Source: Escherichia phage Ptacy1537. Taken from it: a stretch of DNA of 43,020 nucleotides. The DNA lies in the sequence record PQ863254.1; one strand, written 5' to 3'. A program made the position numbers and the translations under genes. Positions 3,512-22,280 of this stretch are shown here, one piece after another (positions within the stretch are counted from its first letter, which is position 1; each line of letters begins with the position of its first letter). Under the pieces are notes generated by a model. That model was not told the origin of the DNA. It made no database searches and saw only the letters and a list, made by a program, of their open reading frames with translations.

Positions 3512-3662
3512 GAGCCTCTATGACCCGTGCACTCCACCAGCCTTACCTGAGGGTGTACTTGACCAGTTAATCATTGAGCAGCACGTCCTGGACCTCTATG
3601 GGACCATCTCAGGCTGCAATGATGACAAGGCTGAAATCAAGAAGCTACTCAGCGGTAAATAG
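3366..3662 (+). CDS. Rz1-like outer-membrane lipoprotein spanin (o-spanin), overlapping Rz in the +1 frame
   Basis: ORF starts inside the Rz gene in another frame and runs past its stop. Hydrophobic signal ends in lipobox LSLTGC; the mature part is Pro-rich (PYVPESLYDPCTPPALPEG). Confidence 0.5.
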   Translation: MLNFKVQNPSWSVFTFATQATIVLYCLLSLTGCGQQTTKYVRVAPYVPESLYDPCTPPALPEGVLDQLIIEQHVLDLYGTISGCNDDKAEIKKLLSGK

Positions 3663-4927
3663 TTGCCCGTTACAGTGCACTCCTCTTCCCGACTGGTGAG
3701 TGTACTGTTGCGGCCCAATTATGGCATAAAATTGTATGACCGGAGCGACCCTCGCGACACCCCTCGCTTCCCCCATAGGCCCTCCGCTTTGCACCATCGT
3801 GGAGCATTGGGCCGCCTCCGGGCACCTGGGCCTGCACTGGCAGGGCCATCATGGGCACCTATCGTGTGAGCTCCTGTAACTCCCTGTGCGACACTGTAGG
3901 CCATCACCGCTACCTACGTATCACCGTCTGGCTAATCGCCAGCCGTAGGGCCGCATAGGGCCATCTATCAGCTACTGGTTATCATCACTACTGCCTTATC
4001 GTTTATCAGAGTCGGACAAGGTAGACTCAAGGGTTATCATAGTCGGTCTGTTTAGCAGAGTGAGTACCATCACTCAGAGATTATAGTGTAGCTGAGTCCT
4101 TACTATAGCCGGGGAGTGAACCAGTGTCAACCCTATCTTATGACTATCTCACTACTCATTGTGTCGGGAGTGTCCTATTGTGTTAGACACGCGCTTAGCG
4201 TGGCTGTGCCCTTCTCTGTGCTCTTCCTATCGTGTGACAAGGGTAAGCCCTATCTCATACCTATCGTGCACTCACATTGCTTTATAGCGGCTCTTATTGT
4301 GTGTACAGGGGCGGGCTATCTGTATCCCTGTTTGCCAGCTCATCACACTGTTAACACATACCGTCTAACCATAGGGATAACCTGAGTCATACCCTACCAG
4401 TGACCTATCATCACACCTATCAAGCTATACACTGTATCCATAGTCTAATCGCCTATGGTAAGCACATAGTGATTCTACCGTTGAATATAAACATATCACA
4501 GATAGTGAGTACCTATCTGTCCACTACTAGCTCCACTGTCTAATCGCCAGTGGCTAACGTCCTATTCGTAGTCCTCCGCTACGCTCCGTACATACTCACT
4601 TCTGATACAGATAGAGAGAATTGTAACATACGTTACTACCTACCTATCCCTACCTGTAAGGCCCATTGCTTCGTTCTGTGCTCATAGAGTATGACGAATC
4701 AAACAGCACAGAGCCTGCACTCACAGTGCCTTAAATATAATCCTATTGAATACATACACTTAGCAATTAATTCGAATTTATTTGCAAATAACGCTTGCGC
4801 TTTTAGTCGGCTATACCCTATCATTCAATCACACCGCAGCAATCAGGCGGCAAGCAGTAAGAAGTACCGCTCTTTAACAATATGGTCATAGTATAGTGTG
4901 TCCTCTCAGGAGTATAGGGGATGATAC
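3663..4927. other. Large non-coding region, probable physical genome-end / terminal region in a circularly opened assembly
   Basis: No credible ORF (only short, overlapping, hydrophobic or low-complexity ORFs). Visibly lower GC, many CCTATC-type short repeats and three CTAATCGCC hairpins. Lies between the lysis cassette and the early promoter, where T7-like genomes have their ends. Confidence 0.5.
3928..4553 (+). repeat. Three hairpins sharing a CTAATCGCC core with different complementary stems
   Basis: 3928-3942 CTGGC-TAATC-GCCAG; 4438-4458 CCATAG-TCTAATCGC-CTATGG; 4533-4553 CCACTG-TCTAATCGC-CAGTGG. Stems are perfect inverted repeats that differ in sequence while the loop core is kept. Confidence 0.6.
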
Positions 4928-5299
4928 ATGACACTAAGCAAAGTACAACAAGCCGCGAACAAACAGGCCCAACGGTTAGCCAAACAGGCAGCCCGACAGG
5001 CCCAGAGTACCACAGAGCGTGCCCGTGCTGTGGCCTTGTGCAAAGCTGGCTCCTCAAAGGCTGGCAAGGCGGAGGCCCGCAGGATGGAGCTTGGAAAGCT
5101 GGCGTATAGTAAGACGGTCGGCGGTATGAATTATGCGGTGGATGCACGCAAGCAGCGCAAGCAGGATAAGCCCGCCGCCGCGAAGTACACTAAGCAAACA
5201 GACTTTGGTACACGTACCGCTACCTACGGTAGCAAGACAGATGCAACGGTTAACAGTTACCGCCGGGCTAAATCAGGCGATAACCTGCCACGTAAATAG
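4928..5299 (+). CDS. Hypothetical basic low-complexity protein (doubtful gene)
   Basis: 123-aa K/R/A/Q-rich ORF upstream of the early promoter. Weak RBS. Could be spurious. Confidence 0.3.
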   Translation: MTLSKVQQAANKQAQRLAKQAARQAQSTTERARAVALCKAGSSKAGKAEARRMELGKLAYSKTVGGMNYAVDARKQRKQDKPAAAKYTKQTDFGTRTATYGSKTDATVNSYRRAKSGDNLPRK

Positions 5300-5312
5300 T
5301 TTAAATAAATGC

Positions 5313-5341
5313 TTGACATTAACGAGGATGCACCATACTAT
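5313..5341 (+). promoter_or_regulatory. Candidate host sigma70-type early promoter
   Basis: TTGACA (5313-5318), 17-nt spacer, TACTAT (5336-5341). Sits upstream of the early gene block on the coding strand. Confidence 0.45.
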
Positions 5342-5868
5342 GACCATACAGACAGCGGAGACCGACACGGCAAACAACGTTAGGTGAGTCTCCAATGTTT
5401 GGGCCTTGCACTCGCAAGCGCTTTTGTGAAAGAGACTTTGATGTACACATTGTGGAAGTACCCAGCACAGAGGAAACTCCGGTGATGGGAAGTGGAAGGT
5501 GCTTAAGTGCGATTGCCACGAGGAACCGCGATGGGGAAGCGTAGTATAGGGACGATAACCCTTTAAAGATATCAGGCCGGGTGAGATGGTAGGTCAGTTA
5601 TAAAATCCATCGATAATAGTGTTTGGCGAGCATTCCCTCCACCGAACGGGAGAAATCGCATCCAGCGTCACTGAGCGGGACAAGTCTCAAACGTATTGGA
5701 TTAACATCTGCTCCTGAGTAGGACGGGTAACGCGGTTAGCGCATGGTGACACTGTGAAGTGGTTCGATGCAATGCTTGACGCCTACCGACGCGAAAGGGA
5801 GCGGGTTAACATATGAGTATTCAATGGTGAGTATTCATACCTTTAACCAAACGATGAGGATTTACAAA

Positions 5869-13002: not shown

Positions 13003-13178
13003 GTAAGAAATGTACCTGTGGGCGGGGCTATGTCTCCGCGTGGGACGGAGCGTGCGGTAACTGCCGACCGCGCAAGAAACAAAAGGCACACCTGTATGCC
13101 CTATTCAATCTTCCTGAGGGTCTTACGACGGAAGAGGCCAAGCAAGTCTATACGGATTTACGGAGACGCTGCAAATGA
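12999..13178 (+). CDS. Small zinc-ribbon protein (below the ORF-track size cutoff)
   Basis: Manual translation gives 59 aa (MSKKCTCGRGYVSAWDGACGNCRPRKK...) with CxC...CxxC. ATGA overlaps at both ends. Confidence 0.4.
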   Translation: MSKKCTCGRGYVSAWDGACGNCRPRKKQKAHLYALFNLPEGLTTEEAKQVYTDLRRRCK

Positions 13179-14134
13179 GTAAGTTAACGGTCCATAAGGG
13201 GATACCATACGAAGAGAAACGCCTCCGGCAATGGTTGGAGGAGGACGGTAAGGTAGTCCTCCAGATTAAGCGCGACGAGATTCGTTGCGTGGTGGAGATT
13301 CACCACAACGATGCGACGGAACCGCCATTCGTAACGTACACCAGTGCCAGCGGTAAACCGCTATACAATCTGAGCTGCTTCGACCAGCATTGGCTTGACT
13401 TCTCGGCACGCACTGGTAAGCGCAAGATTGACTGCGGCGTGGCCATCAATGACAGCTTCGACCTGACCCGGCGCACGGTGATGGCGAAGACCAAGCAGTA
13501 CGACCTATCTGGCAACACGGCCAACACCATTGCAGGCGAGAAGAAGAAAGACCTGCCGCACTACGTCGGCCCGCTGCGTGCGATGTTCTGGCTGTACGAC
13601 GTCATCGACCACTACGGTACGTATGCAGACCGCCGCCGGGATATGGCCAAGTATGCGCTGGACTTCCCCAAGTTTCTGGCGTGCCCGGAGACGTTCGTTA
13701 TTGAGTCGGGTAACTCTGATACCGTAATCCCTCAGTGTGAAATAGACCGGGCTGTCGCGGAGGTGGAGTCTCACTTCCAGCAGGCTCTGGACTGCAAGCA
13801 CGAAGGGTTAATGATTAAACGCTTCTACCACTTCTGGGAGCCCCGTCGCACCACGAACTGGATGAAGATGAAACCGGAGGCAGAAGTCGATGTTGAAATC
13901 ATCGGATATGTGGAAGGAAAAGGCGAGTTTGCTGGCCTGGTGGGAAGCCTTACCGGGCGTGCAGAGGACGGCAGCACAGTCGATTTTAGCGGGTTCACAC
14001 TTGAGCTTCGACGTGCCATCTCTGCGGATTTTGAAAGCTATCTGGGACGCTGGTGTGAGGTTCAATACATGCAGCGAGACGCCCAGGGCGGCTACCGCCA
14101 CCCGCGCTTCTTCCGCTTCCACCCGGATAAATAA
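13175..14134 (+). CDS. ATP-dependent DNA ligase (T7 gp1.3-like)
   Basis: 319 aa. Lysine motif region QIKRDEIR; HEGLMIKR and NWMKMKPE match the T7 ligase motifs EGLIVK and WWKMKPE. Confidence 0.8.
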   Translation: MSKLTVHKGIPYEEKRLRQWLEEDGKVVLQIKRDEIRCVVEIHHNDATEPPFVTYTSASGKPLYNLSCFDQHWLDFSARTGKRKIDCGVAINDSFDLTRRTVMAKTKQYDLSGNTANTIAGEKKKDLPHYVGPLRAMFWLYDVIDHYGTYADRRRDMAKYALDFPKFLACPETFVIESGNSDTVIPQCEIDRAVAEVESHFQQALDCKHEGLMIKRFYHFWEPRRTTNWMKMKPEAEVDVEIIGYVEGKGEFAGLVGSLTGRAEDGSTVDFSGFTLELRRAISADFESYLGRWCEVQYMQRDAQGGYRHPRFFRFHPDK

Positions 14135-14157: not shown

Positions 14158-14742
14158 ATGAATCCTGTCGTACTGAATACGTTGAAACGCACCCATCTGA
14201 ACCTGGTGACGCTTCTTGGCGTACCCGCGAGCCGTTTGTTTCTGGTGGGTGGCTGTGTCCGTGATTGCGCCGCCGGTGCACAGCCGAAGGACTATGACTG
14301 CGTGGTACTTAACGACGTTGTAGAGGCCTGGGATGACTGCACGTCCTTCGCAATGGCGGAGCGTATAGCCCGCCTGGCACGTGAACTAGGCGCTACGGTG
14401 GCTATCTACCAGGCATATGGTAACGCAGCAGGTGCGGATGCGCACGACCTAACCGGACGTACCCGCGACTTCGACGACAACATCTGGTGCGGTATCCACG
14501 TACAGTTCGGAGAGGATACGCCATACGATATCCTCCTGTCCCGACACCAGGATATCGACGATGTGCTGTACAGCTTCGACTGCAACTGGAATCAGCAGTA
14601 CATCGGAGATAAGATTCACCTTTACTGGCTCGGTAAGAACGAGCTGGTATTCACGGGTAAGCCTCTCCGGGAAGGTCGCGAGGAGTATATCCGCAACAAA
14701 TACAACGAGGTATTCAATGTCCTTAATAGCACTGGTTCATGA
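14158..14742 (+). CDS. Minimal Pol-beta-superfamily nucleotidyltransferase, CCA-adding-enzyme head-domain-like
   Basis: 194 aa. FLVGGCVRDCAAGAQPKDYDCVV closely parallels the class II tRNA nucleotidyltransferase signature (YLVGGAVRD...KDRDWVV). A downstream RTRDFDDNI resembles the RRDxTxN motif. Confidence 0.55.
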   Translation: MNPVVLNTLKRTHLNLVTLLGVPASRLFLVGGCVRDCAAGAQPKDYDCVVLNDVVEAWDDCTSFAMAERIARLARELGATVAIYQAYGNAAGADAHDLTGRTRDFDDNIWCGIHVQFGEDTPYDILLSRHQDIDDVLYSFDCNWNQQYIGDKIHLYWLGKNELVFTGKPLREGREEYIRNKYNEVFNVLNSTGS

Positions 14743-17253: not shown

Positions 17254-18084
17254 ATGACTACTGATACTCAACTGTCCCGCGCCCAACAAATCGCTGCCCG
17301 TGCCGCCGCCGCCGTAGACCGTCATGGCGACCAGAACGAAGTCGTAGCGGGCGGTGGCGGTAACTACACCCCGCCACCGGCTGGTAAAGCTAAGGCGCGT
17401 CTGGTTGGTTACTTTGAGACTGGCCCGCAGAAGAACAAGAACTACCCGGACAAACCGGCGCAGAACTCGTTCATCCTGCAATTTGCACTGTACGGCGAGG
17501 GTTATGCCCGTGAAGACGGCAAGCCGATGACCATCGAAACCCGTAAGTTCGCCGTCGGCCGTGGTGAGAAGTCCAACGCAGTTAAAATCTTCCGCCAGCT
17601 GTGCCCTACCAAAGACGTGCAGCACTTCCTGGGGCTGCTGGGCCGTGCATTCTGGGTTGTCATTGAGCACAACACCCAGCCAGCTAAGGAAGCTGGTAAA
17701 CCGGATGTGGTATTCGCCAACATCAAAGAGAGCGAGCTGAAGCCTGCTCTGCGCGACGTGTTCGATGATGACGATAACCTGATTGGCCAGCGCGAAGTAG
17801 CGGTGCCGGAAGCCACCGACGACCAGTTCAAGGTCTTCGAGTGGGACGTACCGAGCAAGGAAGACTTCGACAGTCTGTCTGGTAAATACCAGAAGATTAT
17901 CCGTAGCTCTGAAGGCTTCGCACAGTCCGCCCTGTTCGCACTGGTAGGCGCGGGCAACCCGGCCACCACCGATGCCCCGGACGAAGGACCGGAGCCGCAG
18001 GATAGTGAAGACGAGCCACAGACCCCGCAGACCCCGGTGACTGACACCCCGGTAGCGGACGCTGGCGCACTGCCGTCGCTGTAA
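17254..18084 (+). CDS. Hypothetical protein with acidic Pro-rich C-terminal tail (possible ssDNA-binding or polymerase accessory protein)
   Basis: 276 aa. C-terminus DAPDEGPEPQDSEDEPQTPQTP. Lies between the polymerase and exonuclease genes. Function inferred from position only. Confidence 0.5.
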   Translation: MTTDTQLSRAQQIAARAAAAVDRHGDQNEVVAGGGGNYTPPPAGKAKARLVGYFETGPQKNKNYPDKPAQNSFILQFALYGEGYAREDGKPMTIETRKFAVGRGEKSNAVKIFRQLCPTKDVQHFLGLLGRAFWVVIEHNTQPAKEAGKPDVVFANIKESELKPALRDVFDDDDNLIGQREVAVPEATDDQFKVFEWDVPSKEDFDSLSGKYQKIIRSSEGFAQSALFALVGAGNPATTDAPDEGPEPQDSEDEPQTPQTPVTDTPVADAGALPSL

Positions 18085-19061
18085 TGTATCAGCCGAATAG
18101 AATACGGGAGCGTGCCGCCAGCGCGGCTCCCATGTTCCACTCGAATGATAAGTGGACGCTGCTTAGTTGCGATGCGGATTCCATCATATACAACGTAGCG
18201 GCAACCACTAACAACATCGAGACGGCGAAGCGGCGCTTTGTGGACAAGGCGCTTACCTTACACTTCCTGGCAGACGCGGCGTTGTCACGGATGCACCTGA
18301 CGCCGAAGCACTGCCGCAAGGCTGGGCGATTCAACATCATCGCACAGAAACCATATCAGGCCAACCGGGAGCCAGGCTTCTTTGAAGACGGCACTCCAAA
18401 GCCGAGTAAGAAGCCTGCCCTGGTCGAGCCTCTGCGCTACGCCGTAGGGCGCGGCAAACTACTACTTCCACCGGAGATTGAGATAGTATTCAACGACGTG
18501 TTCGAGGCCGATGACTCAGTGGTTACTGAGTGTACGACCTACGGAGACGACGCAATCTATTACTCCGAGGATAAGGACTTAGATTGTCTACGAAACAGGA
18601 AGTTATGTCAGAAGACGTTGCAGGTGCTCCCGGCTCTGCCGTCGTCTTTGCTGGGTACTCTGGAGCTGGTCGAGTTATCAGCTTCGAAGAAAGTGGCTGG
18701 TCGCGGCCCTTTGTTCTTCTGGGCTCAGATGTTGATGGGCGACACCGCCGACAACATCAAGGGCATCCTCAAGATGCATGGGAAGCTCTGTGGGCCTGCG
18801 AAGACCTTTGAGGAGCTGGAGGTATTCAGTGGTGCCCCAAGCTACCGAGAGGCGGATGTAGCCCGCGTAGTCTTGGAGCATTACAGAGCCATCGACCAGA
18901 ACCCGTGGCCGGAAGCCTGGCTTCTGTGGCTGTACCCCACACCATCATTCACATTCTACCACTACCTGCTTAGCTTGGGTGTGTTAGACGATTCGGAGTT
19001 AGGACGATGGCTGATGAAGAAAAAGGCGGAGCAGTGGTTCCGCGTCCCGGACAGCGAGTAA
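18084..19061 (+). CDS. 5'-3' exonuclease (FEN-like, T7 gp6-like)
   Basis: 325 aa. Acidic metal-binding clusters (SCDADS, FEADD) and a MGDTADNIKGI helix-hairpin-helix-like motif typical of flap endonuclease family nucleases. Confidence 0.7.
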   Translation: MYQPNRIRERAASAAPMFHSNDKWTLLSCDADSIIYNVAATTNNIETAKRRFVDKALTLHFLADAALSRMHLTPKHCRKAGRFNIIAQKPYQANREPGFFEDGTPKPSKKPALVEPLRYAVGRGKLLLPPEIEIVFNDVFEADDSVVTECTTYGDDAIYYSEDKDLDCLRNRKLCQKTLQVLPALPSSLLGTLELVELSASKKVAGRGPLFFWAQMLMGDTADNIKGILKMHGKLCGPAKTFEELEVFSGAPSYREADVARVVLEHYRAIDQNPWPEAWLLWLYPTPSFTFYHYLLSLGVLDDSELGRWLMKKKAEQWFRVPDSE

Positions 19062-19234: not shown

Positions 19235-19599
19235 AGAACATTATCGACGTTAACCCAATGACTCGTGTATTCCTGGCGAGCGAGCTGGGCGACCAGATTC
19301 AGCGCGGCCTGTTTAAGCAGGTCGGCCAGATTCGCACCGAGTATGTGCAGAAGAACATTGAGGGTGAAGAATCCTCAATCGTACAGCGCAGCGTTACGGC
19401 GGTGATTCACGACCTGCACCTGGACAAGTTCTACGAGATTGAGCAGTATCGTGGCCTGGCCATTCGCGCCGAGATTGGCGACGAGGAGATGCTGGGGCAC
19501 ATCCGGGAGCTGTTGCCTACCCTGGGCGACGACGAGGGCTTCGTGTACGACCAGCGCATTGAGCGCGGCGTGGAGTATCTGGAGAGTGCTGATGCATAA
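19231..19599 (+). CDS. Hypothetical protein
   Basis: 122-aa acidic ORF with GAGG upstream. Confidence 0.55.
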   Translation: MKNIIDVNPMTRVFLASELGDQIQRGLFKQVGQIRTEYVQKNIEGEESSIVQRSVTAVIHDLHLDKFYEIEQYRGLAIRAEIGDEEMLGHIRELLPTLGDDEGFVYDQRIERGVEYLESADA

Positions 19600-20032
19600 A
19601 CTTACCCGCGCCCAGCAGGTAGCCTGGGCGAAGCAGGAGCTGAGCAACGGGCGCGGTTGTCCGTTGTGTCTCCGTAGCTGGCAGACGATTATCGCAGAAG
19701 CTGAACAGCGCGGCAGTCGGCAAGCCCCTTACGTTGTGGACCACGACCACATTACCGGCGAAGTACGTGGCCTCCTGTGTCGTGGCTGTAACGGGGCCGA
19801 GGGAAAGGTAACAAACGCCGTAGCCGCCTGGGGTAAGACCGGGCACGATTACGCTAAGATTCTGGCCTGGCTTGACCGCATGGTTAAGTATCTTAAGGGT
19901 CCCGGCAAGGGTGTTATGTATTCGACGCACGTGCTGGCCGAAGACAAAGCACGCAAGGCAGCAGACCGCCGTAAGGAGCAGGCACAGGCCCGCGCTAAAG
20001 CACGACGTCAACAAATTCAACGAGGTAAGTAA
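19592..20032 (+). CDS. Endonuclease VII-like (His-Me finger) DNA junction-resolving nuclease
   Basis: Start at ATG 19592. CPLC...VVDHDHITGEVRGLLCRGCNGAEG matches the Cys4 zinc / HxH-N pattern of T4 gp49-type endonuclease VII. Basic C-terminal tail. Confidence 0.6.
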   Translation: MHKLTRAQQVAWAKQELSNGRGCPLCLRSWQTIIAEAEQRGSRQAPYVVDHDHITGEVRGLLCRGCNGAEGKVTNAVAAWGKTGHDYAKILAWLDRMVKYLKGPGKGVMYSTHVLAEDKARKAADRRKEQAQARAKARRQQIQRGK

Positions 20033-21066
20033 TGGCTAAGGTAACACTTCGCAATCTATTCACCAAAGAGCAACACACTTTAATCCTGGGCCGCTTTCTG
20101 GATAACGTAACCGCGTCAGACGCATATAACGTGACCGCAGCCTACGGGGAAGTACCTACCTTCAAAGAGCTGGCCGAGTTCACTAAGACTCTGGGCGAGG
20201 CAGAGCAACTGGTATCGCGGCAGCTGGTTCGATTCTGGCGTCAAATCTTTATCGACCACGACGGCAGCCGGGCCAAGACCACTCGCGACATTATCAGCGA
20301 ACGTAAGCTGATTCAGCCCAGCCCCTCCGATGATGTGGGTGAGACGACTGTTCCGAAGGTGGCCCGCCGTATCATGACCATTGGCGATACCCATGCGCCG
20401 TATACCCATCCCGACGCATTGGCCTTCCTGGAGAGCCTGAAGGTTAGCTACAACCCGGATGTCGTTGTCCATATGGGTGATGAGACTGACGGGCATGCAA
20501 TCAGCTTCCACGACAGCGACCCTAACCTGGACAGTGCTGGTGTAGAGTTGGAGAAGGCTAAGACCTGGTTGGAGAAACTCCATGATATATTCCCGGAATT
20601 GTTGGTGTGTGACTCCAATCATGGTTCACTCATTTATCGCCGTGCAAAGGCTCACGGTCTTCCTATCCAGTTCATCAAGAAGTATCGCGATATTTTGTTC
20701 CCAGCACACGGGGCACCGGGCTGGTCCTGGGCTGACGCATGGGTACTTGATACACCGCTCGGTGTTGTGCGTTTCCAGCATCAAGTCTCTGGTGACTTCA
20801 TGCTTAATGCCTCACACGAACGTACCAGCCTGGTCCTGGGCCATGAGCACGGCCGCTTTGAAGTCCAGTATGCAGCTTCAAGCACTGCCCTTTACTTTGG
20901 GGCATACGCGGGATGTCTTATCGACAGAAAGAGCATGGCGTTCGCCTACGGCAAGTTGACGCGTAAGAAGCCAATCCTGGGTTGCTTGGTCATTACCGAC
21001 GGCGCTCCTCAGTTAATCCCAATGCTCCTGGACGACGATGGTCGCTGGGTAGGGCGTAAGAAATGA
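20032..21066 (+). CDS. Calcineurin-like metallophosphoesterase
   Basis: 344 aa. Motifs GDTHAP (D-x-H), HMGDETDGH (GDxxD) and CDSNHGS (GNH-like) in the canonical order. Confidence 0.65.
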   Translation: MAKVTLRNLFTKEQHTLILGRFLDNVTASDAYNVTAAYGEVPTFKELAEFTKTLGEAEQLVSRQLVRFWRQIFIDHDGSRAKTTRDIISERKLIQPSPSDDVGETTVPKVARRIMTIGDTHAPYTHPDALAFLESLKVSYNPDVVVHMGDETDGHAISFHDSDPNLDSAGVELEKAKTWLEKLHDIFPELLVCDSNHGSLIYRRAKAHGLPIQFIKKYRDILFPAHGAPGWSWADAWVLDTPLGVVRFQHQVSGDFMLNASHERTSLVLGHEHGRFEVQYAASSTALYFGAYAGCLIDRKSMAFAYGKLTRKKPILGCLVITDGAPQLIPMLLDDDGRWVGRKK

Positions 21067-21560
21067 ACCGTAAGACGGTAATCGTATGGGACCTAGACGG
21101 CACGCTGCGGGACGGTAAGCACCGTCTCCACCTTCTCCCGACAGGCGACTATAGCAATCCTGATAGTTGGTTGCCCTTTAACATGGCGTGTGGTGGTGAT
21201 TCTCCAATCTGGGACAACATAGAACTTCTTAGAAGCCAGGCGATGGCCGGATATCACATCGTACTTCTAACGTTCTGCGACGACCGTGCTATGCAGACTA
21301 CTAAGGAGTGGCTGGCACGCCATTACATACCGTACAACCGACTTATCATGAGGGACATAGATGGTGGTCGGGATGTAGACTTTAAGGAGCAGCGCCTGCG
21401 CTCTATAGGCGTCAACAATATACTGTGTATGTTCGACGACTCAGAGCATGTAGTAAAGCACGTGCGGCGGATGGGTATAACCTGTCACCAAGTAACCCAC
21501 TACGAAGAGAGTGAGAAACACGCACACCTTAAAAGCAGCGAGGAGCTGAGCAATGAGTAA
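21063..21560 (+). CDS. HAD-family phosphatase resembling the 3'-phosphatase domain of T4 polynucleotide kinase
   Basis: 165 aa. N-terminal VIVWDLDGTL (DxDGT). MAGYHIVLLT and C-terminal FDDSEHVVKHVRRMGITCHQV parallel the remembered T4 Pnk phosphatase sequence. 4-nt overlap with the upstream gene. Confidence 0.6.
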   Translation: MNRKTVIVWDLDGTLRDGKHRLHLLPTGDYSNPDSWLPFNMACGGDSPIWDNIELLRSQAMAGYHIVLLTFCDDRAMQTTKEWLARHYIPYNRLIMRDIDGGRDVDFKEQRLRSIGVNNILCMFDDSEHVVKHVRRMGITCHQVTHYEESEKHAHLKSSEELSNE

Positions 21561-22128
21561 GACGAAGGACATTATCATCCTGAACGGGCCGCCAGGCAGC
21601 GGTAAGGATGCCGTGTGCCGCGAGTTCGTGAAGTTATGCGGCGCGGAGCATCTTGAGGTTAAGGCGCGACTATTTGACCTGGCACTGTCAATTAGTGGAC
21701 TGGACCCTAAAGTGTGGTGGGGGCTGTATAATAATCGGGAGACTAAGGAGAAGCCGTCACCTCTCTTTGGTGGACTTTCCCCACGTGGGTTCATGATTTA
21801 CATCAGCGAGCAAGTTATGAAACCCCTGTTTGGGGGTGACTACTTCGGCAAATACGCAGCTACATCGGCCGCATCCAGCCCTAAAGGATGTGTAATATTC
21901 ACGGACGGTGGATTCCGGGAGGAGGTTAAACTTCTCGCAGAGGTTGGAAATGTGCACCTTGTGCATCTCTACCGGGACGGGTACTCCTTCGACGGCGACA
22001 GCCGAAGCTATCTATCACCGGACGAACCATTCCTGTCCACCTACCTGCGTATCGACCAGGTAGAGGGCGAGCTGGGGTATGCTGTTGGGCAGCTGAAATC
22101 CCACATGCTTGAGTGGTGGCTTAAATGA
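21553..22128 (+). CDS. P-loop kinase (polynucleotide 5'-kinase or dNMP kinase-like)
   Basis: 191 aa. Walker A GPPGSGKD near the N-terminus. 8-nt overlap with the phosphatase gene. Confidence 0.6.
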   Translation: MSKTKDIIILNGPPGSGKDAVCREFVKLCGAEHLEVKARLFDLALSISGLDPKVWWGLYNNRETKEKPSPLFGGLSPRGFMIYISEQVMKPLFGGDYFGKYAATSAASSPKGCVIFTDGGFREEVKLLAEVGNVHLVHLYRDGYSFDGDSRSYLSPDEPFLSTYLRIDQVEGELGYAVGQLKSHMLEWWLK

Positions 22129-22280
22129 CATTCTACGAACTTATCCAATCCGGCGTAATTCGCCATATCGACTGCCTGATGGAAACCGGGCGGGAAGATG
22201 AAGCACTAGCCCTGATTGAAGAATGGGTATCACAGCATCCAGAATTAGTGGATGCATTCCGGGAACACTTTAAGGAGTAA
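22125..22280 (+). CDS. Small hypothetical protein (below the ORF-track cutoff)
   Basis: Manual translation gives 51 aa (MTFYELIQSGVIRHIDCLMETGRED...). ATGA overlap with the kinase stop. Ends just before the RNA polymerase start. Confidence 0.3.
   Translation: MTFYELIQSGVIRHIDCLMETGREDEALALIEEWVSQHPELVDAFREHFKE

Follow-up and report, generated by a model that had tools for sequence, protein, structure and literature searches.

The 43,020-nucleotide (nt) sequence of Escherichia phage Ptacy1537 (PQ863254.1), analysed over its whole length and called the window below, carries three consecutive genes for a metallophosphoesterase (MPE), a HAD phosphatase and a P-loop kinase (Table 1). A sequence-only reading of this DNA had described three overlapping genes at 20032-22128 and proposed them as a candidate split polynucleotide end-healing toolkit. 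The open reading frames (ORFs) are present at these positions on the plus strand, and all junctions overlap: TAATG between the preceding endonuclease VII gene and the MPE gene, ATGA between the MPE and HAD genes, 8 nt between the HAD and kinase genes, and ATGA between the kinase gene and a following ORF of 51 amino acids (aa). GAGG-type ribosome-binding sites lie ahead of the MPE and kinase start codons. Judged by their many homologues, all three ORFs are real genes (best E-values of 2e-214 for the MPE, 1.7e-108 for the HAD protein and 5.6e-101 for the kinase). Overlapping start and stop codons are usual throughout this genome, and the tight packing of the trio is therefore not diagnostic alone.

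Table 1. Features of the three-gene locus and of its surroundings in the window
Feature	Position	Strand	Remarks
Metallophosphoesterase (MPE, phrog_221)	20032-21066	+	344 aa
MPE N-terminal helical domain	20032-20340	+	AlphaFold2 helices at residues 10-50, pLDDT ~90
HAD phosphatase (phrog_415)	21063-21560	+	165 aa
P-loop kinase (phrog_139)	21553-22128	+	191 aa
ATP-dependent ligase	13175-14134	+	DNA-ligase adenylation and OB domains
Nucleotidyltransferase (phrog_1614)	14158-14742	+	194 aa; LVGGCVRD...PKDYD signature
5'-3' exonuclease	18084-19061	+	97% identical to the annotated exonuclease of Klebsiella phages vB_Kpl_K59PH2 and vB_KpP_GP-4; candidate partner in host-DNA breakdown
Endonuclease VII	19592-20032	+	Pfam Endonuclease_7, 9e-12
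Conserved 51-aa ORF	22125-22280	+	Before the RNA polymerase gene; weak TPR-like match

The three gene products

The kinase can be assigned with high confidence, from sequence comparison, to the deoxynucleoside monophosphate (dNMP) kinases (DNKs) of the T4 gp1/Rao1 type, and is predicted to have broad specificity. The P-loop recognized by the sequence-only reading is present as a Walker A motif, GPPGSGKD, with its lysine at residue 18, and is invariant in 44 homologues. R78, E86, K90, D118, E124 and D149-S-R151 are also invariant in the family, and the window protein has all of the family invariants. It matches phrog_139, annotated as "deoxynucleoside monophosphate kinase" in PHROGs (1.8e-39). 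In a profile search of the PDB, the T4 dNMP kinase (1DEK) was the sole match that reached past the P-loop, and the fold of the window kinase is that of this enzyme, T4 Dnk. An hhalign comparison with T4 gp1 extends over 174 columns (95.5%, E 1.5e-8), whereas one with T4 polynucleotide kinase (Pnk) aligns 27 P-loop columns only. The Pnk-type 5'-kinase domain, which is AAA_33-like with Asp35 as general base and Arg126, was not found in the window kinase.

Relatives of this kinase have been characterized. The window protein is 45% identical (E 9e-42) to gp58 of Escherichia phage Rao1 (R1DNK) and 39% identical to the DNK of Klebsiella phage VAC2 (QZE50419.1). R1DNK phosphorylates dAMP, dGMP, dCMP and dTMP in vitro and needs its P-loop Lys15, as the K15A mutant is inactive; deletion of the Rao1 gene lowers dATP in infected cells. 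The homologues from VAC2 and from phage KarlJaspers act as DNKs in vivo. Compared with T4 gp1 and Rao1 gp58, the window kinase is compact, without the ~50-residue insertion of T4 gp1, and its gene overlaps that of a HAD phosphatase.

The HAD protein is, by sequence comparison, a genuine member of the Pnkp-phosphatase family that occurs as a standalone enzyme. It scores 49 bits against Pfam HAD_PNKP (8.6e-13; cut-off 27.6) and matches Pnkp1 (4xrp) in the PDB (3.6e-5). Its DxDGT motif and C-terminal FDDSEHVVKHVRRMGITCHQV align to residues 157-299 of T4 Pnkp (hhalign 97.6%, E 4e-12), which bears out the earlier observation that it resembles the 3'-phosphatase domain of T4 Pnk. This homology to the C-terminal DxDxT domain of T4 Pnkp (PseT) includes the DD....RR.G..C.QV tail, and both phages encode a phosphatase alongside a P-loop kinase. 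Unlike in T4, the window kinase is not Pnk-type, the two activities lie in separate genes in the reverse order, and there is no Rnl partner. The phrog_415 family comprises 1251 records, and an exhaustive profile search with the HAD protein returned 13,305 cluster representatives, nearly all of 145-170 aa.

Motifs I, III and IV of the HAD protein are D10-L-D12-G-T14, K108 and D125-D126, respectively. Motif II reads T70-F71-C72-D-D-R (codons 70-75) in the window, while T-G-R (or S-G-R) stands at this place in 26 of the 28 family members aligned. The window T70-F71-C72 aligns with S211-G212-R213 of T4 Pnkp, and an arginine (R75) follows three residues on. Relative to the active-site set of the T4 Pnkp phosphatase, which we take, in part from PMC3592404, to be D165, D167, R176, S211, R213, K258 and D277/D278, the window protein has D10, D12, R21, T70, K108 and D125/D126, with F71 at the position of G212 and C72 at that of R213, so that a residue matching R213 is missing. 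R213 is reported to be essential for the 3'-phosphatase activity of the T4 enzyme. A 98%-identical protein in the nr database (P0190, "MAG: acid phosphatase [Bacteriophage sp.]") has the same TFC, and the change is therefore not a sequencing error. The arginine at +3 possibly compensates for it.

The first gene encodes a calcineurin-like phosphoesterase with the expected catalytic motifs, as previously noted. It matches Pfam Metallophos above the curated cut-off (6.5e-5) and phrog_221 (3.7e-105), a family of 642 records. Five metal-binding motifs, G118-D-T-H121, G149-D-E-T-D153, S195-N-H197, H250 and G270-H-E-H273, are invariant in 26 homologues; within this set (GDxH, GDETD, SNHG, H, GHxH), SNHG is the form taken by the third motif. 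The catalytic domain begins at about residue 110 and is preceded by a helical domain of ~90 aa. Residues ~38-60 form a variable insert in the alignment that is missing from many homologues, and homologues of the SP6 type align only from residue 61, which suggests that their N-terminal domain is absent or divergent. A helix-turn-helix (HTH)-like pattern in the N-terminus of the window MPE was considered and rejected, as it found no support in Pfam scans of 12 N-terminal domains or in a profile search of the PDB. Single-sequence and profile searches of the PDB gave no significant match for the MPE. It belongs to the same binuclear metallophosphoesterase superfamily as lambda phosphatase and bacterial Pnkp (Clostridium thermocellum Pnkp-Hen1), the latter of which joins an MPE domain to a kinase, but no specific similarity to the catalytic domain of CthPnkp or lambda phosphatase was found.

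Conservation of the gene order

Synteny was surveyed around the HAD gene, in 82 loci, and around the kinase gene, in 82 metagenomic viral loci. The HAD-centred loci comprised 36 in which an MPE of a second family, phrog_704, preceded the HAD and kinase genes, 21 with HAD followed by kinase, 18 with a phrog_221 MPE followed by HAD, 3 complete trios of the window type and 4 with HAD alone. Dereplication at 90% identity of the HAD protein left 36 clusters; an MPE and/or kinase gene adjoined HAD in 32 of them, and the order was always kept. The order MPE, HAD, kinase is also found in Drexlerviridae, namely in Rao1 (gp56-58), in the Weberviruses KW1 and VAC2 and in Pantoea phage AAS23 (ORF38-40), whose authors listed these ORFs among the nucleotide-metabolism enzymes. 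The Drexlerviridae HAD protein (39%, Rao1 gp57) and kinase (39-45%) are recognizably related to those of the window. The MPE is not, being a phrog_704 protein with a clear N-terminal HTH. Homology of phrog_704 to phrog_221 was examined and set aside, since no similarity could be detected (hhalign returned nothing) and the two have only superfamily motifs in common (judged by eye, and for phrog_704 also by Pfam).

The HTH of the phrog_704 proteins is of the LuxR/sigma-70-region-4 type (for example, L086 2351-3478, L168 36693-37826 and L167 17743-18873), an architecture unusual for a phosphoesterase. In Drexlerviridae they are labelled "DNA repair exonuclease" or "putative phosphoesterase", and the AAS23 homologue was reported in virion proteomics (PMC8004638). 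In phage T1, a gene for an HNH homing endonuclease lies between the HAD and kinase genes (L085 2984-4570), indicating that the pair tolerates splitting; the 8.5 kb of T1 that were examined contained no detectable phrog_704 MPE.

A further arrangement is seen in phage SP6 (gp21-gp25). There, exonuclease and endonuclease VII genes are followed by a phrog_221 MPE gene (gp23, 46% identity to that of the window), a nucleotide kinase gene (gp24) and a DNA ligase gene, and the order exonuclease, endonuclease VII, MPE is common to SP6, its relatives and the window. The SP6 kinase belongs to the T7 gp1.7 type, whose substrates are dTMP and dGMP; unlike the window kinase it is not a P-loop enzyme and is not homologous to it, and SP6 has no HAD gene. 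Natural fusions of a HAD phosphatase with a DNK-type kinase also exist (P0265 and P0288, 403 and 461 aa), with the domains in the same order from N to C terminus as the genes. They turned up only in the exhaustive HAD search, and none of 69 kinase homologues was fused to a HAD or MPE domain. The arrangement recurs with two MPE families that have no recognizable similarity and with two kinase families that are unrelated, and this, together with the HAD-kinase fusions, points to a shared pathway ending in dNMP phosphorylation. There is thus good evidence, at the level of sequence and gene order, that the MPE-HAD-kinase trio is a real conserved module serving such a pathway. Of the three-gene functional cluster proposed in the sequence-only reading, the cluster itself is upheld by synteny in two phage families and by the fusions, and the end-healing role is not.

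The three genes could instead be independent accessory enzymes without any functional link, adjacent through the tight one-strand packing of DNA-metabolism genes in Autographiviridae. Each of them occurs alone in many phages: 67 of the 82 kinase-centred loci had neither partner, with neighbours that included SHMT, glycosyltransferase, RNase H and RuvC genes, and many phages with a phrog_221 MPE have no HAD and/or phrog_139 kinase. Such a distribution of the kinase, mostly without partners and near genes of replication and nucleotide metabolism, is in keeping with a nucleotide enzyme that works autonomously. The start/stop overlaps, being usual genome-wide, would also be expected under chance adjacency. 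In addition, the trio appears to differ in history from its surroundings. The nearest phages, at ~79% nucleotide identity, are the Klebsiella phages vB_Kpl_K59PH2 (K59PH2), vB_KpP_GP-4 (GP-4) and KYP (Autographiviridae, Melnykvirinae). The trio is 67-77% identical to K59PH2 at the nucleotide level, and 47% over the insert in the MPE N-terminal domain, whereas identity rises to 88-97% in the DNA polymerase, exonuclease and RNA polymerase genes on either side; the window MPE is nearer to a protein of Pectobacterium phage MA13 (81%) than to its K59PH2 counterpart. Relative to its flanks, the cassette therefore has the look of a recombinational mosaic. However, chance packing does not readily account for the same order in an unrelated siphovirus family with a dissimilar MPE, for the fusion proteins, for a non-orthologous kinase at the same position beside the SP6 MPE, or for the partner genes alongside HAD in nearly all dereplicated clusters, and we regard the absence of a functional link as very improbable.

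Deoxynucleotide salvage and other possible roles

The trio is probably a deoxynucleotide salvage or pool-processing cassette rather than a polynucleotide end-healing enzyme. This is close to what the sequence-only reading had offered as its simpler alternative, nucleotide-pool enzymes, and it fits better; the kinase step follows from homology to tested enzymes, and the roles of the MPE and HAD proteins we infer. The MPE would be an Mn/Fe-dependent phosphodiesterase or nuclease that converts host DNA or its oligonucleotide products to mononucleotides. An action on host DNA is suggested by its position just behind the genes for the 5'-3' exonuclease and endonuclease VII and by two MPE precedents. 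The MPE gp48 of mycobacteriophage A10ZJ24 degrades host DNA; this phage is unrelated, and gp48 serves as a functional precedent with no homology claimed beyond the superfamily level. An MPE endonuclease of Pseudomonas putida is reported to leave mixed 3'-PO4 and 3'-OH ends (PMC7826289). The HAD protein would act as a Pnkp-type aspartyl-phosphate phosphatase on small deoxynucleotides, most likely 3'-dNMPs, pdNp and short 3'-phosphorylated oligonucleotides, stripping phosphates so that the products could enter the kinase step or be degraded further. The kinase would then convert 5'-dNMPs to dNDPs, and host Ndk would convert these to dNTPs for phage DNA synthesis. The gene order would thus mirror the order of reactions. 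RNR, ThyA and other genes for de novo dNTP synthesis are not among the annotations of the closest relative, which suggests that the phage would depend on such salvage.

In the end-healing toolkit favoured by the sequence-only reading, the MPE would open 2',3'-cyclic phosphates, the HAD enzyme would remove 3'-phosphates, the kinase would phosphorylate 5'-OH ends, and a phage or host ligase would seal the break, for example in a tRNA cut by anticodon nucleases. Both the phosphatase domain of T4 Pnkp and the Pnkp1 phosphatase are indeed true homologues of the HAD protein, whose adjacency and occasional fusion to a kinase mimic the Pnkp architecture. In a more distant HAD relative (P0342, 318 aa), the phosphatase precedes a genuine AAA_33 kinase of the Pnk type within one fusion protein, and the ATP-dependent ligase and nucleotidyltransferase cited in that reading are both present 6-7 kb upstream, the latter resembling CCA-adding enzymes and poly(A) polymerases. 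The kinase speaks against this role: its fold, its full-length profile match and its tested relatives are those of a dNMP kinase and its likeness to T4 Pnk ends with the P-loop, an outcome that the sequence-only reading had itself named as refuting its proposal, as far as this enzyme is concerned. End healing would require a protein of dNMP-kinase fold to work on polymer ends. Furthermore, the MPE has no specific kinship to the Pnkp/lambda-phosphatase clade, and the ligase, the only one in the window, is by its domains a DNA ligase of the type usual in the T7 group. The annotation of the closest relative includes no RNA ligase, that of the trio-bearing Drexlerviridae records examined no ligase of any kind, and the window has no tRNA genes. 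The SP6 pairing of a phrog_221 MPE with a gp1.7-type dNMP kinase would also be left unexplained. We consider end healing very unlikely. Fusions of the P0342 type show that polynucleotide work by the wider HAD family is real, but this is not what the partners of the window gene suggest.

The known activities of HAD relatives bear on its substrate. The T4 Pnkp phosphatase acts on polynucleotide 3'-phosphates, and it is also efficient on deoxynucleoside 3'-monophosphates (24 per second with 3'-dTMP), though not on ribonucleoside 3'-monophosphates (PMC3592404). The fusions to DNK-type kinases point to mononucleotide substrates, as does P0254 (267 aa), in which a close HAD relative is fused to the N-terminal domain of a dATP/dGTP diphosphohydrolase. 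Rao1, with its HAD protein gp57 encoded beside the DNK, still accumulates dAMP and is sensitive to the Kongming defence unless T5 Dmp is supplied, indicating that the HAD protein does not deplete 5'-dAMP and that 3'-phosphorylated deoxynucleotides are its more likely substrates. On this basis, we would place a 3' specificity slightly above even chances, and a 5' specificity at clearly less than that.

Several observations weigh against the salvage interpretation. The substrates of the phrog_221 MPE and phrog_415 HAD families are derived from context. Deletion of the Rao1 DNK had no measurable fitness cost, and salvage may therefore not be the main selective benefit. Lacking the Gly-Arg of its family, the window HAD copy may have altered specificity or reduced activity. 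T5 Dmp, an enzyme that dephosphorylates 5'-dNMPs, also shows distant similarity to the HAD protein, and the diphosphohydrolase fusion P0254 would suit a 5'-nucleotidase no less than a 3'-phosphatase. The MPE, HAD and kinase genes are each found without the others in many phages. Finally, host-DNA debris (pdNG and m6-dAMP) and phage DNK activity are sensed by bacterial defences, which makes a counter-defence role of the MPE and HAD proteins a live alternative.

Under this alternative, the MPE and/or HAD enzyme would destroy small nucleotide danger signals or their precursors arising from host-DNA degradation or immune synthesis. Candidates include 5'-dNMPs (as for T5 Dmp), m6-dAMP, pdNpdN dinucleotides and cyclic nucleotides, and a HAD enzyme encoded beside the kinase would offset the liability of a DNK that triggers Kongming-type immunity. 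DNKs of the window kinase's family do trigger Kongming, and HAD-type Dmp phosphatases, which co-occur with phage DNKs, counteract it; T5 Dmp is a deoxyribonucleotide 5'-monophosphatase and an anti-Kongming factor. The HAD family of the window protein and T5 Dmp have motif I, an HR motif (WDLDGT....HR) and an N.AC..D (NxACxxD) cap motif in common. Breakdown products of host DNA activate ApeA (pdNG) and PUA-Cal-HAD (m6-dAMP). In the latter defence, PUA-Calcineurin-CE + HAD, an MPE and HAD pair strips phosphates stepwise from dATP to dADP and dAMP, showing that such pairs can act on nucleotide pools; it is a host system and a functional precedent, with no homology claimed beyond the superfamily level. 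The almost constant linkage of HAD to a DNK and/or MPE gene is likewise in keeping with a clean-up role. However, the Rao1 HAD gene beside its DNK gene does not prevent Kongming sensitivity or dAMP accumulation, and T5 Dmp is needed in trans. The tested Dmps form a separate subfamily of longer HAD proteins (244 aa in T5), and the match to the window protein is partial (hhalign 85%, E 5.9e-6, N-terminal 67 columns only); the HAD protein is nearer to the T4 Pnkp phosphatase than to Dmp. Clean-up as the principal role is therefore unlikely, though less so than end healing or chance adjacency.

Salvage and counter-defence could also coincide. In a speculative scheme to which we give a similarly low probability, MPE, HAD and DNK would form a three-step line that converts to dNDPs those host-DNA products whose ends are blocked or unusual (3'-phosphates, dinucleotides, methylated dNMPs) and thereby clears the danger signals of ApeA and PUA-Cal-HAD, with the change from TGR to TFC in the HAD protein acting as a specificity switch. 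If true, this line, which is present in two or more phage families and in some cases takes the form of fusions, would be a salvage pathway and an undescribed counter-defence at once.

Part of this picture is already known, as the kinase family has been characterized, the trio has been noted in print and the genes are annotated in hundreds of genomes. The roles of the phrog_221 and phrog_704 MPEs and of the phrog_415 HAD proteins, and their linkage as a module, were not established in the literature searched. The HAD protein is labelled "polynucleotide kinase" in hundreds of phage genomes, and the neighbouring kinase sometimes "phosphotransferase", "NTP hydrolase" or "hypothetical". Reading the pair as a Pnkp-type phosphatase and a dNMP kinase, not a Pnk, corrects this widespread habit. 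Linkage to a validated dNMP kinase gives the common families phrog_221 and phrog_415 a concrete context, namely how phages without dNTP-synthesis genes process host-DNA debris, a question made weightier by the several defence systems recently shown to sense such debris. Rao1, which is genetically tractable and has the same trio, could serve as a test system.

Neighbouring genes and genome context

The window is approximately a complete, circularly permuted genome of a phage of the Autographiviridae (Melnykvirinae), with every long ORF on the plus strand. Upstream of the trio lie genes for a primase, helicase, DNA ligase, nucleotidyltransferase, DNA polymerase, phrog_862 protein and 5'-3' exonuclease, two small ORFs and endonuclease VII. 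Downstream of it are the 51-aa ORF, which is also found in K59PH2 and GP-4, the RNA polymerase gene and then the structural genes. Promoter and terminator signals around the trio were not above shuffled expectation.

The signature of the nucleotidyltransferase is the one that marks the head domain in class II CCA-adding enzymes and in poly(A) polymerases, although its match to Pfam PolyA_pol (2.6e-4) is below the cut-off and it is far shorter than genuine CCA enzymes. Its 3' end overlaps the long DNA polymerase ORF by ~180 nt, which suggests that the polymerase start is probably further downstream.

A region at ~3660-5770 is largely ORF-poor, with a G+C content down to 0.45 (elsewhere ~0.55) and reversed GC skew. 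It matches an unannotated gap in K59PH2 (4043-5370), and in the permuted assembly it is probably where the physical ends of the genome and the early promoter region lie.

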